Below are positions 1-5,995 of a DNA stretch of 32,000 bases, in pieces. The notes under the pieces are model-generated. The model was given only the letters and a program-made list of their open reading frames with translations. It made no database searches and was not told where the DNA came from. Every line of letters starts with the position of its first letter. Within the stretch, counting starts at the first letter, position 1. The stretch lies in assembly GCA_964586355.1 (NCBI GenBank), contig CAZPGO010000030.1:30001-62000 (forward strand). The letters are read 5' to 3'. Both the position numbers and the translations under genes were made by a program. Source of the DNA: an uncultured archaeon. GTDB lineage: Archaea > Iainarchaeota > Iainarchaeia > Iainarchaeales > CSSED10-239.

Positions 1-426
1 ATTTTCATATTTACACATTCTGATATTCTAACACCTGTTGAAAACATAAATTCTACTATTAGTTTATTTCTAGTATTATCTATAACAGAAATAAGTTCTT
101 TAATTTCTTTAGGTGTTAAGACAATTGGTATTTTCTTAGCTTTTTTTGGCAGTTTTATATTTATTAAAATATTACTTTTTAAAAATTCAATATAAAAATG
201 TTTAATAGCAGAAAGTACAAGATTAAGTGTTGCAGATCCTACTTTTTTTTCTGTTTTTAAATATGATAAAAAATTTATAATATCATCATCATTTATTTTA
301 TCTAGATCTTTTTTAACATATTCATAAAACATATTTAAATATATCATATATGTATCAATAGTTCTTTGACTATAACCCATAATATTTAGTTCATTTTTGA
401 ATTTTTTTAATAGTATTTCTGACATA
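1..426 (-). CDS. Tyrosine recombinase/integrase (XerC/XerD/XerA-like), N-terminal part. The gene runs off the left edge.
   Basis: This ORF is absent from the ORF track because it is truncated. The reverse complement from the ATG at 426-424 reads MSEILLKKFKNELNIMGYSQRTIDTYMIYLNMFYEYVKKDLDKINDDDIINFLSYLKTEKKVGSATLNLVLSAIKHFYIEFL...LTPKEIKELISVIDNTRNKLIVEFMFSTGVRISECVNMK without stops. That is a SAM-like core-binding domain followed by the TGxRISE box carrying the first catalytic Arg of tyrosine recombinases. Confidence 0.75.
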
Positions 427-1123
427 TAAATAATAATAGCTCTATTTTCTTTATAATCTTATTGTTTTAAGCCGAAAAAGTGCTTTGTTTTTCAAACCTT
501 TTTGACTCTTTTTTTTTCTAGTTTTTTAGTTTTTTTAATAAATTATATTAAACAAGTGTTATTTTGGCTTGTTTTATTTATACATAAATTTATTTTTTAG
601 ATCTTTTTTTCTTCTAACCTTTTATATTTTCTAGCTTTTTTCTAATTTATACATAAGTTAGTAAAACAAACAAAACCACTTATAAAATGATTGACCTTCT
701 ATTAATTATACTTTTTTTAAAAAAAGAAATATAATGTGATCAAATATAAATCCCAAATACATACTCAACAGAAAAGATGAAAAAATCACTTATAATATTT
801 ATAAAATCAAATTAGCAATATTAAAAGCACTTGATGCAATTGAGAATCCTGATATAGATCTTGCTGATTTTATTACTAAAAAAGTTGATACTGTTTTAGT
901 TAATGAATATTTTAATAAAAAGATTTTACCTAAGATTGATGATATTCAAAATATTATTGAAGATGTTTTAATTAAAGAAGGATTAACTAAATTAGTAAAA
1001 GCTTATGTTATTTATAGAAAACAACATGATGATTTTAGGCAATTTTCTAAATTAATAGATAGTGTTAATGCTGTTGAAAGTTACATAAACATTTCTGATT
1101 GGCAAGTAAAAGAAAATAGCAAT

Positions 1124-2773
1124 ATGGATTATTCATTACAAGGTCTAAATAATTATTTATCTACTAAAATAATTTCTGATTATTGGATAAAAAAAATATA
1201 TCCTCCAGAAATAAAGGAAGCACACGAAAAAAGGCAATTACATATACACGATCTAAGCACATTAGGACCTTATTGTGTAGGTTGGGATCTACAATTTTTA
1301 TTAAGAAATGGTTTTAAGGGAGGTCTTGGTAAAATTGTTGCATCTGCTCCAAAACATTTTGATATTGCATTAGGTCAAATAGTTAATTTCATTTATACTC
1401 TTCAAGGAGAAGCAGCAGGTGCTCAAGCTTTTAGTAATTTTGATACTCTTTTAGCTCCTTTTATTTTTTATGATAATCTGGATTATAAAAGAGTAAAGGC
1501 AGATCTTGAAAAATTTATTTATAATATGAATGTTCCAACAAGGGTTGGATATCAAACTCCATTTTCAAATATAACCTTAGATCTAACAATACCATCAACT
1601 CTAAAAAACGAATCAGTAATAATTGCAGGAAAACCTATGGACAAAACCTATGGGGAATTCCAAGAACAAGTTGATATGTTTAATAAAGCAATTTTAGAAA
1701 TTTTTTATGAAGGTGATGCTGGAGGAAACATGTTTTCATTTCCAATACCTACAATAAATGTTACTAGTGACTTTAATTGGGATAGTGATCTTGCAAATAA
1801 AATAATTGATCTAACCATAAAATATGGTACCCCTTATTTTGCAAACTTTGTAAATTCTGATATGAAACCAGAAGATGCTAGAAGTATGTGTTGTAGATTA
1901 AGATTAGATAATCGTGAGCTTCAAAAAAGAGGAGGAGGGTTATTTGGATCTAATCCTCTAACAGGATCTATTGGTGTTGTAACAATTAACCTTGCACAGA
2001 TAGGTTATCTTGCAAAAACAAAAGAAGAGTATTTTGAAAGACTTGGTTATTTAATGGATCTTGCTAAAAAATCATTAGATCTAAAAAGAAAGATTGTTGA
2101 AAAGTATACAGAGGATGGACTATACCCTTATTCTAAATACAATCTTTCACAGATACATGATAGATTTGGATCTTATTGGAAAAATCATTTTTCTACTATT
2201 GGTCTACTTGGTATGAACGAATCTGCTGTTAATTTTTTAGGTGAAGGCATATATACAGAAAAAGGTCAGGCTTTTGCTATTGAAGTTATGGATTTTATGA
2301 GAGATAGAATACAAAAATATCAAGAAGATACAGGAAATTTATATAATCTAGAAGCAACTCCAGGAGAGAGTACTACTTATAGATTTGCAACTTATGATAA
2401 AAAAGAGCATCCTTCAATAATTGTTGCTAATGAAGAAAATTATCAACAAGGTGCTCAGCCATATTATACAAATTCAACACAATTACCAGTAAATTATACA
2501 ACAGATATTTTTGATGTCTTGGATTTACAAGACGATTTACAATGTAAGTACACTGGTGGAACAGTTCTTCATTTTTTTATTGGTGAAAAAAAACCTTCTA
2601 GAGAAGCAATAAAATCATTAATAAAAAAAATCTCTAAAAATTACAAATTACCATACTTTACATTTAGTCCAACATTTTCAATTTGTCCAAAACACGGATA
2701 TATTTTTGGAGAGCATGAATATTGCCCACTTTGTGATAAAGAAATAGGGTATATAGAAAAGGAGGAAAAGTAA
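1124..2773 (+). CDS. nrdD: Anaerobic (class III) ribonucleoside-triphosphate reductase NrdD, large piece. The frame is open upstream to 740 and encodes an ATP-cone, so the true N-terminus is almost certainly upstream of 1124.
   Basis: NrdD hallmarks are present: LGPYCVGWDL, ARSMCCRLRLD (thiyl-radical Cys loop), GGGLFGSNPLTGSIGVVTINL, and the C-terminal Zn-ribbon CPKH...CPLC. The upstream in-frame translation (740-1123) gives an ATP-cone-like YILNRKDEKITYNIYKIKLAILKAL...AYVIYRKQ and the conserved DWQVKENSN. Confidence 0.9.
   Translation: MDYSLQGLNNYLSTKIISDYWIKKIYPPEIKEAHEKRQLHIHDLSTLGPYCVGWDLQFLLRNGFKGGLGKIVASAPKHFDIALGQIVNFIYTLQGEAAGAQAFSNFDTLLAPFIFYDNLDYKRVKADLEKFIYNMNVPTRVGYQTPFSNITLDLTIPSTLKNESVIIAGKPMDKTYGEFQEQVDMFNKAILEIFYEGDAGGNMFSFPIPTINVTSDFNWDSDLANKIIDLTIKYGTPYFANFVNSDMKPEDARSMCCRLRLDNRELQKRGGGLFGSNPLTGSIGVVTINLAQIGYLAKTKEEYFERLGYLMDLAKKSLDLKRKIVEKYTEDGLYPYSKYNLSQIHDRFGSYWKNHFSTIGLLGMNESAVNFLGEGIYTEKGQAFAIEVMDFMRDRIQKYQEDTGNLYNLEATPGESTTYRFATYDKKEHPSIIVANEENYQQGAQPYYTNSTQLPVNYTTDIFDVLDLQDDLQCKYTGGTVLHFFIGEKKPSREAIKSLIKKISKNYKLPYFTFSPTFSICPKHGYIFGEHEYCPLCDKEIGYIEKEEK
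2761..2766 (+). promoter_or_regulatory. Shine-Dalgarno-like GGAGGA serving the mini-ORF at 2774
   Basis: GGAGGA lies 8 nt upstream of the ATG at 2774, inside the last codons of the nrdD large piece. The same GGAGG-type motif precedes dnaK, the pilin genes and the ORF at 5699. Confidence 0.5.
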
Positions 2774-2926
2774 ATGGAAGCAAATATAGAAGAATTAAAA
2801 GCAAAAAGACAAAAATGTGAAATTTTTTCTAGAGTAGTAGGATATGTAAGAAGAGTAGATGCATGGAATTATGGTAAACAAGCAGAGTTTCATGATAGAA
2901 AATTATTTAATACAGATAAGAAGTAA
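2774..2926 (+). CDS. 50-aa glycyl-radical peptide of NrdD, encoded as a separate ORF (not in the ORF track)
   Basis: The ORF translates as MEANIEELKAKRQKCEIFSRVVGYVRRVDAWNYGKQAEFHDRKLFNTDKK. It contains the class III RNR glycyl-radical signature SR(V/I)xGY...WNxGKxxEFxDRK. It starts immediately after, and in the same frame as, the nrdD TAA at 2771-2773. Confidence 0.7.
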   Translation: MEANIEELKAKRQKCEIFSRVVGYVRRVDAWNYGKQAEFHDRKLFNTDKK

Positions 2927-2931
2927 TTAAC

Positions 2932-3600
2932 ATGGAATTAAGAATAGGTGCAATAGAAAAATTTAGCACAATAGATTATCCTGACAAGATATCTTGTGCT
3001 ATTTTTTTAAAAGGGTGTAATTTTTTTTGTGGTTTTTGTTATAATAAACAACTAGTTTGTAAAGAACTATTGGACACCACTCCTGATCTTCCCCTAGAAG
3101 AACTTAAAGAATTTTTAAACAAACGTGTTGGCTTAATTGATGCGGTTGTTGTTAGTGGTGGAGAACCAACAATATATGGCGATTCTCTTATTTCTTTTAT
3201 TAGAGAGATAAAAACAAAAGGTTATCTAATAAAATTAGACACAAATGGTTCAAATCCAAAAGTATTAAAACAAATAATTTCTGAAAATTTGGTTGATTAT
3301 ATTGCTATGGATTTAAAAGATTCTTTTGAAAATTATGATAAATATACTTTTGTTCCTGTTGAAAACATCAAAGAGTCTATTAATTTAATCCTAAATTCCA
3401 ACATAGCTCATGAGTTTAGAGTTACCACTCACCCAGAACTAACTTTGGAGAATTTTAATATTTTATTAACTTATGTTCCTGAGCAAAAGGTTCTTGTCCA
3501 AGATTTCATGAACACCAATACTATAAAAGAATATCCTGATGATTCTAAAACAATTTTTTCACAATTATCAAAAGAGGACAAAAGATATATTTTACGTTAA
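2932..3600 (+). CDS. nrdG: Anaerobic RNR activating protein (radical SAM)
   Basis: The CNFFCGFC motif is the CxxxCxxC radical-SAM cluster, and VVSGGEPT is the SAM-binding GGEP motif. The gene sits directly downstream of nrdD. Confidence 0.88.
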   Translation: MELRIGAIEKFSTIDYPDKISCAIFLKGCNFFCGFCYNKQLVCKELLDTTPDLPLEELKEFLNKRVGLIDAVVVSGGEPTIYGDSLISFIREIKTKGYLIKLDTNGSNPKVLKQIISENLVDYIAMDLKDSFENYDKYTFVPVENIKESINLILNSNIAHEFRVTTHPELTLENFNILLTYVPEQKVLVQDFMNTNTIKEYPDDSKTIFSQLSKEDKRYILR

Positions 3601-3624
3601 TATTTTTAAAAAGAGAGATTAATT

Positions 3625-5670
3625 ATGGTTTTTGTAAATACAATAATAAGCAATTCAAATGAAAAAGAAATATTTTCTAAAGAAAAATTAACTATTTTAT
3701 TATTTGAAAATATGTGTACTATTGGTTCACCAAATTTAAATCTTGCAGAAAAACTTTCTTTTTTAATAGTTGATAAAGTTAATGCTAGTTTTTCAGAGTC
3801 TATTTCTTTTGAAAAATTAGATGATATTATAAAAGAGGTTTTATTTAAAGAAAATCAAAAAGATCTCTTACAAGCATATATTTTTAAGAAATCAAAACCT
3901 GATCATTCTTTAATAGATCAGGAGCTTAAAGAAAACATATTAAAATTTCTTTTGAATTTAAATGATTCTGAAAATATTTCTTCTTATTTAATAAATTTAA
4001 ATAGTCAATTAAATGAATTACAGAATAACACCCATGAAAAAATAAACAAAAATATTTTTGATTATATAAGAGAGGGTTTATTTTACCCAAGTTCAAAGAT
4101 TTTAAAAAGTATTTCAAAAAATCATTATTTTTCCTCCACATTTTCTTTTCATATTGAGGATACCTTAGAGTCTATTTTTGATAATTTGTCTTTATCTAGT
4201 AAGCTTCAAAAACAAGGTCTCTCAATATCAATTGATTTAAGTAAAATAAGATCTCAAAAAGAAAAAATAAAATCTATTAATGAAAATGCTTGTGGACCTA
4301 TTAAAGTTGCAAATTTATTTAGATCTGCAAAGGCTATGATTGGGTACTCTATAAAAACATCTAGTAATGTTTTTTCTATATCTATTGAACATCCAGATAT
4401 AATCTCTTTAATTAATTATAATTTTTCAGAAACCTCTGATAATTTCACAATTTTAGTTCCAAATAGATTTGTTGAAAACTATATGAATAATGAAGACTAT
4501 GTTATTGAGACTGTTTTTGGTAATCAAAAAATAACTCCTTCAATAATTTTTGATCTAATTTGTTCAAAAATAGCTATTGGGGAAAAAATAAATCTTGTCT
4601 TTGTAGATCTGATGTCTAAAAAAAACCCAATCTCTTTAGAACAAAAAATTTTTTCAATTTCTTCTGTCGGTTATCAACCAGTAATTGACAAAAGTGGTTT
4701 TCTCTCGGGGGTAATTGATGTTTCAAAATTAGTAAATATTTTAGGAGATGCTAAAACTTTTGATTGGCAAAAACTAAAAGCAATTATTTGGGATTCTGTA
4801 GAATTTTTAGATAATCTTATTGATTCTTCTAATTATATTAATGATGAATATATGCAAGCGGCAAAAGATTATAGGCAGATCTATTTGTCTATAACTGGTT
4901 TTGCTACTCTTTTATCTAAACTAAATATTTCCTATAATAGTGATGATGCGATCTTTTTTGCAGAAACTCTATCTAATTTTATATCCTACTATGCAAAGCT
5001 AAAATCCACTGAGCTTGCAAAAGAAAGAGGTCCATTTTTAAAATTCATAAAAAGTAAATATGAACAATCCTCTTTTTCTTTTGAAAAATCTTCTATTCAA
5101 AAAACTTTGTTTTCAAATGATCTAAGCAAATCTAAAAAATTATTAAATAATATGCCTTTAATTGATTGGGTTGAACTTAGAAATAATATTAAGAAATACG
5201 GACTTAGAAACGCAACTACTTTTGGAATAATTTTTTCTGATTTTTATTCTATTGCAAATGATTCTACTAACTCTGTTAATCCTATTTTGAGTTATAAAAG
5301 TACATATCTAATTAATGGTTATAAATCAGAAAAAATAAAGAAAGAACTTTCCTTAACTTCCCCAGACATAAATGAAAATTGGACAGAAGAGGAAATTGAT
5401 TCTTTTTTATCTAATGATCTAAAAAAGTTGTTTGTTAAAGCCAAAAATATAGATCCTTATTTTTTAATAAGATTACAATCTGTTTTTGAAAAAAATTCTG
5501 ACGGGCTTACAAATATAAATATTTTTATTACTGATAATTATACAATCTTAGATATAAAGAATCTAATAATCGAAAGTTACATGTTAGGAAATTCCTTATT
5601 TTTGCCAGAAAAAATAAATGGTCAAAATGACTTTAATACAGATAAAAAAACGAAAAAAAATAGTTTATAA
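3625..5670 (+). CDS. Ribonucleotide reductase-fold protein (NrdJ/NrdA-like alpha chain with a degenerate ATP-cone), predicted to be catalytically inactive
   Basis: The protein is collinear with RNR alpha-chain motifs, but every motif is degraded. SSTFSFHIEDTLESIF replaces SxCFxLxxxDSxESIF. GLSISIDLSKIR...ACGPIKVANLF replaces GGGxGxxxSxLRP...SGPVSFM. KTSSNVFSISIEHPDII replaces GGRRGAxxxxLxxxHPDI. SSVGYQP...SGFLSGVIDVSKLV replaces NPCGEQP...ESCNLGSINLSKFV. RQIYLSITGFATLL replaces RRIGLGxMGxAxxL. GLRNATTFGIIFSD...NSVNPI replaces GxRNxxxxxIAPTG...SGIEP. Confidence 0.75.
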   Translation: MVFVNTIISNSNEKEIFSKEKLTILLFENMCTIGSPNLNLAEKLSFLIVDKVNASFSESISFEKLDDIIKEVLFKENQKDLLQAYIFKKSKPDHSLIDQELKENILKFLLNLNDSENISSYLINLNSQLNELQNNTHEKINKNIFDYIREGLFYPSSKILKSISKNHYFSSTFSFHIEDTLESIFDNLSLSSKLQKQGLSISIDLSKIRSQKEKIKSINENACGPIKVANLFRSAKAMIGYSIKTSSNVFSISIEHPDIISLINYNFSETSDNFTILVPNRFVENYMNNEDYVIETVFGNQKITPSIIFDLICSKIAIGEKINLVFVDLMSKKNPISLEQKIFSISSVGYQPVIDKSGFLSGVIDVSKLVNILGDAKTFDWQKLKAIIWDSVEFLDNLIDSSNYINDEYMQAAKDYRQIYLSITGFATLLSKLNISYNSDDAIFFAETLSNFISYYAKLKSTELAKERGPFLKFIKSKYEQSSFSFEKSSIQKTLFSNDLSKSKKLLNNMPLIDWVELRNNIKKYGLRNATTFGIIFSDFYSIANDSTNSVNPILSYKSTYLINGYKSEKIKKELSLTSPDINENWTEEEIDSFLSNDLKKLFVKAKNIDPYFLIRLQSVFEKNSDGLTNINIFITDNYTILDIKNLIIESYMLGNSLFLPEKINGQNDFNTDKKTKKNSL

Positions 5671-5698: not shown

Positions 5699-5995
5699 AT
5701 GCCATTATTTAAAGGTCCTATAAAAAGACCTGCAGTAAGGAAACCAAAAAAACCTACCCTGAATAAATTTGCAAATTCAAAAAAACCAAATAACTCTACA
5801 CAAATAAGTAAAGATTTAAGAGAATCATTTGGAGATTTAGCAAAGTCTTTAATGCAAAACAAATCAAAACCAAAAACAAAAAGCACAATAACTAGCGAAC
5901 AGCAAAAAAAGAAAGCAATTTTACTAACAAGACAAAAACAAAGAATAAAGCAAATTAAGAAAGCAAAAAAAGAAAATAAAAAAAGATCTGCATAA
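5699..5995 (+). CDS. Small, very basic Lys-rich protein (98 aa), function unknown
   Basis: A strong GGAGTG SD sits 8-9 nt upstream of the ATG. The ORF is extremely K/R/Q-rich with no hydrophobic core. It is convergent with cdc48. Confidence 0.5.
   Translation: MPLFKGPIKRPAVRKPKKPTLNKFANSKKPNNSTQISKDLRESFGDLAKSLMQNKSKPKTKSTITSEQQKKKAILLTRQKQRIKQIKKAKKENKKRSA

Follow-up and report, generated by a model that had tools for sequence, protein, structure and literature searches.

What keeps a gene intact when its product looks like the catalytic (alpha) chain of a ribonucleotide reductase (RNR) but appears to have lost the residues that carry out the chemistry? This question is raised by a gene lying behind the class III RNR genes nrdD and nrdG in a 32,000-nucleotide stretch of contig CAZPGO010000030.1 (positions 30,001 to 62,000, hereafter the window) from an uncultured archaeon of the Iainarchaeota lineage. 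The initial annotation of the DNA had described the 681-amino-acid (aa) product as a homolog of class I and II RNR alpha chains that keeps the landmarks of the fold without the catalytic and redox residues, and had proposed a retained non-catalytic role. We found that the gene very probably does encode a conserved non-catalytic RNR homolog. Its descent and its present role can be stated with less confidence, and both are considered below.

The fold of the protein was examined with profile and structure methods. Pfam assigned the RNR barrel domain (PF02867) with an E-value of 7e-51; PF00317 was not matched, and neither Pfam nor NCBIfam gave a family-level match to other enzyme families. Among the NCBIfam models those of class II NrdJ ranked top, yet the scores were far below the curated equivalog cut-offs, reaching less than half of them in both cases (TIGR02504, 171.6 versus 399.95; NF006417, 185.6 versus 961). 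When a profile of the protein's family was aligned with 20 canonical NrdJ sequences by profile–profile comparison (hhalign), the two matched over 607 columns with a probability of 100% and an E-value of 1e-75. The closest solved relative by sequence was NrdJ of T. maritima (1xje, phmmer E-value 3e-29), and the same protein was the best structural match of an AlphaFold2 model (mean predicted local distance difference test score (pLDDT) 80.7, predicted template modelling score 0.78) in a Foldseek comparison (E-value 1.5e-32 to 1xjm, template modelling score 0.68–0.77). Pfam, hhalign and Foldseek thus all identified the 10-stranded alpha/beta barrel of RNR, which bears out the similarity that had first been read from motifs. 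With T. maritima NrdJ (1XJE/3O0O) the protein shares both the fold and the domain order, namely ATP-cone, helical region and 10-stranded barrel with finger loop, and it keeps the HPD, FLDN, RxIGLG-like and QxxF motifs. In fold the full-length product therefore belongs with the class I/II RNRs, and its nearest kin among them are the dimeric class II NrdJ proteins that carry an N-terminal ATP-cone. It had also been remarked that an open reading frame (ORF) of about 2 kb persists here in AT-rich DNA, and the calculation agrees: at the base composition of the window (~27% G+C), a stop-free run of 681 codons has a chance of about 1e-26.

The catalytic columns were assigned by three independent alignments (phmmer against 1xje, MAFFT with canonical NrdJ, and hhalign of the family against canonical NrdJ), and all three agreed on motif placement. 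The motif-by-motif correspondence and the spacings of about 84 and 90 aa given in the initial annotation proved exact, with 84 aa from SSTF (T172) to HPDI (H256) and 90 aa from HPDI to SSVGYQP (S346). In the finger loop, which bears the thiyl radical, Asn320, Cys322 and Glu324 of T. maritima NrdJ are represented by S346, V348 and Y350, so that NPCGEQP reads SSVGYQP and both the Cys and the Glu are lost, as claimed. The active-site redox pair has been replaced as well, Cys134 by T172 (SSTFSF) and Cys333 by F359 (KSGFLSG, aa 356–362). GGGxG has become GLSIS (aa 198–202), the RRGA of loop 2 has become TSSN (aa 245–248) with the substrate-phosphate ligand Arg207 replaced by T245, and the phosphate loop APTGxxS reads IFSDFYS. 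In 1XJE the substrate is held by Asn320, Glu324, Ser91 and Arg207 (PMC4728125). The C-terminal Cys pair is missing too, the family ending in KNSL or MSL where canonical NrdJ ends in CPxxxCP-type motifs. Only three Cys are present in the whole protein (31, 223 and 313), none of them in a catalytic column. Judged from these alignments, none of the residues on which radical chemistry and turnover depend is left in place. Since it has lost the defining features of NrdJ, the protein should not be filed as NrdJ.

Relatives were collected with a word-indexed search of 5.8 billion proteins, which returned 24 clusters (counted at 90% identity) of 679–727 aa at 45–96% identity; below them lay a gap in identity down to canonical NrdJ at ≤28%. 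An exhaustive hidden Markov model (HMM) search of 1.84 billion representatives at 50% identity yielded 3 full-length family representatives and fragments. The HMM search added P0053 (646 aa), a markedly more distant full-length member, and all lower-scoring matches were canonical NrdJ. In a genome scan the gene was present in 5 GTDB species, and a viral-contig scan revealed no family member on IMG/VR contigs. Archaeal genes accompany it in the window (for an RFC small subunit, an archaeal prepilin peptidase and CDC48). The closest named relatives of the RFC small subunit come from 'Candidatus ainarchaeum sp.' (84%) and, at 76%, from 'Candidatus Diapherotrites archaeon', which assigns the DNA to phylum Iainarchaeota within DPANN. 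All family members, including P0053, have V or I at Cys322, F at Cys333 and T, S, G or Q at Cys134, and the finger loop follows the pattern S-[SPA]-[VI]-G-[YFLMN]; at profile level no Cys or Glu falls on a catalytic position in any of the roughly 25 members. The family is thus narrow, with about 25 database clusters and a number of metagenome loci, confined to Diapherotrites/Iainarchaeota-like (DPANN) archaea, and without the catalytic residues throughout.

No member has a broken reading frame, not even P0053, and 118 columns are invariant across 25 sequences. The ratio of nonsynonymous to synonymous substitution rates (dN/dS, or omega), determined by the Nei–Gojobori method on unsaturated pairs only (dS 0.14–0.54), was 0.11–0.13 for the RNR-like gene. 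In the same contigs, the values were similar for the adjoining nrdG (0.13–0.19), and 0.03–0.06 for nrdD and 0.05–0.065 for CDC48. All ten segments of the gene were under constraint, the cone-like domain, the C-terminal tail and what had been the finger loop among them, and omega was 0.02–0.15 across the whole barrel with the former finger loop. The argument that this is not a decaying pseudogene is therefore upheld, with dN/dS at 0.11–0.13 in all domains and the frame open in all members. By the operational definition (an enzyme homolog with its catalytic residues missing and under purifying selection), the protein would qualify as a pseudoenzyme, as far as sequence can tell.

We found a different pattern at the allosteric specificity site. 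In 1XJE the deoxynucleoside triphosphate (dNTP) effector is anchored by Asp141 (3′-OH) and by Arg171 and Lys158 (phosphates) (PMC4728125). Their counterparts, read from the ungapped +38 offset of the phmmer alignment to 1xje, are D179, K196 and R209 (for Asp141, Lys158 and Arg171, respectively); these are invariant in the 25-sequence family alignment and also kept in P0053. Three of three effector anchors are thus retained, against none of six catalytic and substrate side chains, a split with p = 1/84 by our own calculation for nine residues drawn at random. Conservation is comparatively high (0.84) in the alphaA/loop 1 segment that holds the anchors (LS.IRSEKEKVKSIN.NACGP) and lower in the finger loop (0.66); it peaks in the ATP-cone-like core and in loop 1. 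Loop 2 is degenerate and poorly modelled.

The N-terminal domain had been described as an ATP-cone without its K-R-D-G nucleotide-binding start. This was correct for the start, which reads N-S-N-E in the window protein (within SNSNEK, aa 9–14) and N-K-N-G in most relatives, and has to be refined for the domain as a whole, because the cone fold itself is kept: the hhalign alignment begins at residue 4, and pLDDT is ~80–94 over most of residues 1–80. The Pfam ATP-cone model (PF03477) scored 23.4 bits, just under its cut-off of 25.8, and many relatives carry a precomputed PF03477 match. A strongly conserved, family-specific signature runs through the domain (FSKEK..LFE.MC.IG.PNL.LAEKL.FLI.DK), with S18, K19, E20, C31, G34, P36, N37, L38 and D50 among the family-invariant residues and a family conservation of 0.83–0.86 over aa 21–60. 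At the other end, the tail has conserved residues as well (G655, N656, F659, K663, S680 and L681) and ends in S-L. Further conserved family-specific segments lie at 461–480 and 521–540, and C223, D365, D539 and K558 are new family-invariant residues. A hairpin is still modelled by AlphaFold2 at 558–571, in the region of the beta-hairpin that class II RNR uses for cobalamin binding (PMC9531940).

The genomic setting was then compared across loci. The gene order in the window is nrdD, a 50-aa ORF with the glycyl-radical motif, nrdG, the RNR-like gene, a small basic ORF and a convergent CDC48 gene, and the gaps from nrdD to the small basic ORF are 0, 5, 24 and 28 nucleotides (nt); the tight packing behind nrdG noted at first thus corresponds to 24 nt. 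The order of the first four genes is kept wherever the DNA reaches (L001–L003, L010, L011, L013 and L017) and is also found in metagenome loci whose NrdG shares at least 53% identity with that of the window (L021–L039); L012, a short contig, shows the end of nrdG onward only. The convergent CDC48 constantly adjoins the RNR-like gene, and in L017, the locus of the distant member, the genes past CDC48 differ. The features are collected in Table 1.

Table 1. Positions of the RNR-like gene, its diagnostic segments and the adjoining genes in the window
Feature	Position	Strand	Remarks
RNR-like gene	3625..5670	+	681 aa, stop TAA; apparently catalytically dead class II (NrdJ-type) RNR alpha homolog
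N-terminal ATP-cone-like domain, aa 1–89	3625..3891	+	K-R-D-G start degenerate (SNSNEK, aa 9–14)
T172	4138..4140	+	column of redox Cys134 of T. maritima NrdJ (SACF to SSTF)
Helix alphaA, degenerate GGGxG (GLSIS) and loop 1	4159..4293	+	holds D179, K196, R209 and family-invariant C223 (NACGP)
Degenerate loop 2, GYSIKTSSNVF	4342..4374	+	T245 for substrate-phosphate ligand Arg207; pLDDT <50 at 243–245
Former finger loop ISSVGYQP and second redox position KSGFLSG	4657..4710	+	assigned by three alignments
Degenerate substrate-phosphate loop	5221..5271	+	canonical TIAPTGxxSIIAG to GIIFSDFYSIAND; pLDDT <50 at 538–549
C-terminal tail without class II Cys pair	5587..5667	+	modelled disordered from residue 666; conserved, under purifying selection
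nrdD, class III RNR core	734..2773	+	ATP-cone coding region 740..1123 behind ATG-TGA; standard-start ORF 1124..2773
50-aa ORF with glycyl-radical motif (SRVVGY) of NrdD	2774..2926	+	separate ORF
nrdG, activating radical S-adenosylmethionine enzyme	2932..3600	+	TIGR02495, 176 bits versus cut-off 131
Lys-rich 98-aa ORF	5699..5995	+	GGAG upstream; 28 nt after RNR-like gene

A sister locus, L042 (positions 1–5218, 31% GC, NrdG 45% identical), bears on the origin of the gene. It carries an unsplit nrdD, nrdG, a canonical nrdJ, cobA and a uridine kinase gene, and so forms a compact dNTP-supply cluster that joins class III and class II RNRs. Its NrdJ has all the motifs expected (SACF, GGGTG, KRRGA, NPCGEQP followed by ESCNLG, APTGTIS and a C-terminal CPVTYCPY) and a KRDG ATP-cone (91 bits), and a gene for the corrinoid adenosyltransferase CobA/BtuR directly follows. 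Canonical archaeal NrdJ elsewhere (L014) is likewise followed by CobA; the canonical NrdJ contexts of L014 and L015 show no linkage to nrdDG. The RNR-like gene occupies the same genomic slot as the canonical nrdJ of L042, but it differs from the nrdJ of L014 and L042 in having no adjacent adenosyltransferase gene: neither the window nor any of 12 family loci contains a CobA-like sequence in the roughly 6–30 kb checked per locus. From the arrangement in L042 together with the missing local CobA we infer that a working nrdJ once stood where the dead gene is now; derivation in place from nrdJ is the likelier account of the gene's origin.

These observations can be accommodated in one model. A working nrdJ would have lost catalysis in place, plausibly along with the supply of adenosylcobalamin. 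Its product would still form an RNR-type dimer and would still bind a dNTP at the specificity site via D179, K196 and R209; co-expressed with NrdD and NrdG, it might serve as a non-catalytic nucleotide-binding sensor, regulator or scaffold in dNTP supply, with the cone-like domain and the conserved C-terminal tail as likely interaction surfaces. We consider it an evenly balanced proposition that the gene is a positional nrdJ descendant that lost catalysis and was kept as a non-catalytic, probably dNTP-binding protein co-expressed with NrdD and NrdG. Binding of a dNTP at the old specificity site is suggested by the invariance of the effector triad and of alphaA/loop 1 together with a catalytic pocket filled with V, Y/F and F, and may be put forward tentatively. 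The same invariant triad favours the nucleotide sensor among the roles that had been proposed. An action of the protein on the NrdD system is possible, though doubtful.

Several points weigh against this model. Residue retention and gene order are the whole basis of the functional inference, and the counterparts of Asp141 and Arg171 could owe their retention to a structural part. The effector base is read by loop 2 in real RNRs; because this loop is degenerate here, a bound dNTP may not be distinguished by its base, or binding may have been lost. The constant synteny amounts to about one evolutionary observation, since all carriers belong to one clade and, at most loci, their neighbours are colinear too. 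NrdD of this clade has its own ATP-cone, so that its regulation shows no evident gap that the RNR-like protein would fill, and the cone-like domain of the window protein is without the basic phosphate-binding start. As for the descent, the family is only 23–28% identical to all canonical NrdJ and the similarity ranking singles out no ortholog, hence orthology with L042-type nrdJ cannot be confirmed by sequence, and cobalamin genes were checked within about 6–30 kb per locus only.

Other explanations for the conservation of the gene were weighed against the same data. The most conserved parts of the protein include family-specific surfaces that correspond to no known RNR site (21–60, 461–480, 521–540 and the disordered C-terminal tail), the gene is just as constantly beside the convergent CDC48, and dead R1 proteins (RNR large subunits) have been repurposed elsewhere (PMC5469499). 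All of this would suit a nucleotide-independent scaffold, for example in symbiont–host contact or protein quality control, whose effector residues are kept for folding. Yet retention of all three effector anchors and none of the six catalytic residues would be unexpected if the fold alone mattered, and the operon-like packing with nrdD and nrdG (gaps of 0, 5 and 24 nt) also counts against it; we regard such a scaffold as unlikely. The barrel or the cofactor pocket might instead have been neofunctionalised for a new ligand or reaction, such as corrinoid binding or storage or a non-radical activity. The strong constraint over the whole barrel including the finger loop (omega 0.02–0.15), the new invariant residues C223, D365, D539 and K558 and the hairpin still modelled in the cobalamin-binding region would agree with this. 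However, most side chains that have taken over in the pocket are hydrophobic or small (V/I, Y/F/L/M, F and T/S/G) and several vary among members, which looks like the filling of a cavity and not like a new active site; moreover, there is no adenosyltransferase gene nearby and no family-level match to other enzymes. A neofunctionalised barrel therefore seems quite improbable.

Two further explanations find hardly any room. Loss of all catalytic residues and NCBIfam equivalog scores far below the cut-offs are what one would see in an annotation artefact or in a decaying pseudogene, with a dead nrdJ about to be deleted, but the open frame in all members, the ~1e-26 chance of the 681-codon frame in the window, the 118 invariant columns and above all the omega of 0.11–0.13 together with the conservation of the family refute this reading, whose probability we put close to nil. 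That the protein is a working RNR, using unconventional residues or receiving a radical in trans, was considered because the gene lies beside those for a free-standing 50-aa glycyl-radical peptide and an activase, and because class II and class III enzymes share the barrel. By their established mechanism, all RNRs known depend on a thiyl radical at the Cys of the finger loop. This position is V or I in all members, the Cys residues of the window protein (31, 223 and 313) lie outside the pocket columns, and the substrate-phosphate loop and Arg207 are lost as well, so that a working enzyme is scarcely credible. A bolder version of the dNTP-binding model is also conceivable, in which the dead NrdJ is a class II-derived dNTP-sensing scaffold that docks onto class III NrdD as a cross-class RNR subunit; in variants of it, the old adenosylcobalamin pocket may hold or deliver the 50-aa glycyl-radical peptide, or the dead NrdJ may gate the activation carried out by NrdG in response to dNTP levels. 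We consider this cross-class system very unlikely; if true, it would be the first RNR of one class regulated by a pseudoenzyme from another.

The neighbouring NrdD has peculiarities of its own. It is split (window 2771–2926): the main ORF ends after the third zinc-site Cys (…CPLCDKEIGYIEKEEK, TAA), and a separate ORF of 41–62 aa carries the fourth zinc-site Cys and the glycyl-radical motif KCEIFSRVVGY. In the window this ORF, of 50 aa, has its own GGAGG Shine–Dalgarno sequence and an ATG directly after the nrdD stop. The split was also found in L001–L003, L010, L011, L013, L017, L021–L039, L046 and L071, the last of these on a contig that ends just after nrdG. A dependence of the split NrdD on the dead NrdJ was ruled out by L046, which has the split without the dead NrdJ. 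Because the split occurs both with and without the dead gene, the radical domain seems to exist as a peptide in its own right, in which it resembles GrcA/YfiD of pyruvate formate-lyase.

The cone region of nrdD (734–1123) consists of 128 codons without a stop, has a dN/dS of 0.07–0.15 and opens with ATG-TGA; no ATG, GTG or TTG follows before 1124 in this region. The ATG-TGA opening is common to three strains (the window, L010 and L011), and deeper relatives start normally. Use of TGA as a sense codon was ruled out, since within the gene frames of the window an internal TGA occurs only at nrdD codon 2; the Trp that some database NrdD proteins show at this position probably stems from code-4 gene calls on short contigs. 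Such an opening might be read through, might mark a non-canonical start, or might act in regulation as a start-stop element. Neither Rfam nor tRNA scanning gave any hit in the window, which disposed of an intron or a riboswitch around nrdD. The idea that the window NrdD lacks an ATP-cone and that the dead NrdJ supplies one was likewise rejected, as the cone is encoded at 740..1123 and under selection, and NrdD of the relatives carries a normal ATP-cone. In L010, from a 96%-identical strain, a 321-aa intein follows VGYQ in NrdD (2865–5477); it is absent from the window NrdD (1124–2773), and ORFs of ~1000 aa for NrdD in L002 and L026–L033 suggest the same or further inteins.

Behind the RNR-like gene, the Lys-rich ORF has counterparts in most family loci (92–97 aa, dN/dS 0.24–0.42) and is absent in L013 and L017; it had no Pfam match and is probably not a core part of the cluster. 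Unusual architectures were also seen among other NrdJ proteins. P0055 (1600 aa) and P0056 (1351 aa) each contain two tandem NrdJ units in one polypeptide, with catalytic Cys motifs in both units; the second unit of P0055 reads NVCGE, and the tandem fusion ends in a long Cys-rich C-terminal domain. In P0035 (660 aa), which otherwise looks canonical, the first redox Cys is replaced (LFAATVL) and TNPCGEQ reads IISGCGEQ; this may be a class II RNR that is partly degenerate or works by a variant mechanism.

The protein was compared with known inactive RNR relatives. UL45 of human cytomegalovirus and M45/vIRA of murine cytomegalovirus are inactive full-length R1 homologs kept for another role (PMC5469499), and in concept they come nearest to the protein described here. 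These betaherpesvirus proteins are viral, descend from class Ia R1 and target RIPK1/RIPK3/NEMO signalling of the host; unlike them, the RNR-like protein is archaeal, derives from class II, lies in an RNR operon and keeps its effector-site residues, so the likeness is one of analogy only. Among small subunits the nearest parallel is yeast Rnr4 (beta-prime), an inactive paralog of the class Ia small subunit that aids Rnr2 folding and cofactor assembly. It is likewise an RNR-family pseudoenzyme, and it is kept for supporting an active enzyme, but it forms a heterodimer with its active twin, whereas the RNR-like protein has no same-class twin nearby and any partner would belong to class III. NrdR, a small bacterial zinc-ribbon DNA-binding repressor of nrd genes with an ATP-cone, offers a parallel as a non-catalytic, RNR-derived nucleotide-binding module that senses (d)NTPs, a putative property in our case. 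The RNR-like protein differs from it in having no recognisable DNA-binding domain and a degenerate ATP-cone, its putative sensing being placed at the specificity site. The model NF005401 (PRK06948, 'ribonucleotide reductase-like protein') gave a weak partial match (62.2 bits against a cut-off of 906, residues 321–478), and the protein is not a member. Full-text literature searches gave no cellular, prokaryotic or class II-derived RNR large-subunit pseudoenzyme, only herpesvirus UL45/M45 and general RNR phylogenies, and none of the terms looked up for inactive or non-functional homologs occurs in the RNRdb paper or in Lundin 2010.

The finding has consequences for how these genomes are read. 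The identical protein is labelled 'ribonucleoside-diphosphate reductase alpha chain' in JGI/IMG, and in NCBI the labels are 'ATP cone domain-containing protein' or 'hypothetical protein'. Through the JGI over-annotation, metabolic reconstructions of metagenome-assembled genomes may wrongly credit these archaea with a vitamin B12-dependent RNR, which would imply aerotolerant dNTP synthesis or B12 dependence. With allosteric-site residues kept and the active site apparently lost, the family would offer a natural separation-of-function variant for the study of RNR allostery. It would also allow the route from nrdD-nrdG-nrdJ-cobA to nrdD-nrdG-dead nrdJ to be traced in DPANN archaea with reduced genomes, and that a 2-kb gene is held under selection in genomes so small implies that it has a real function.

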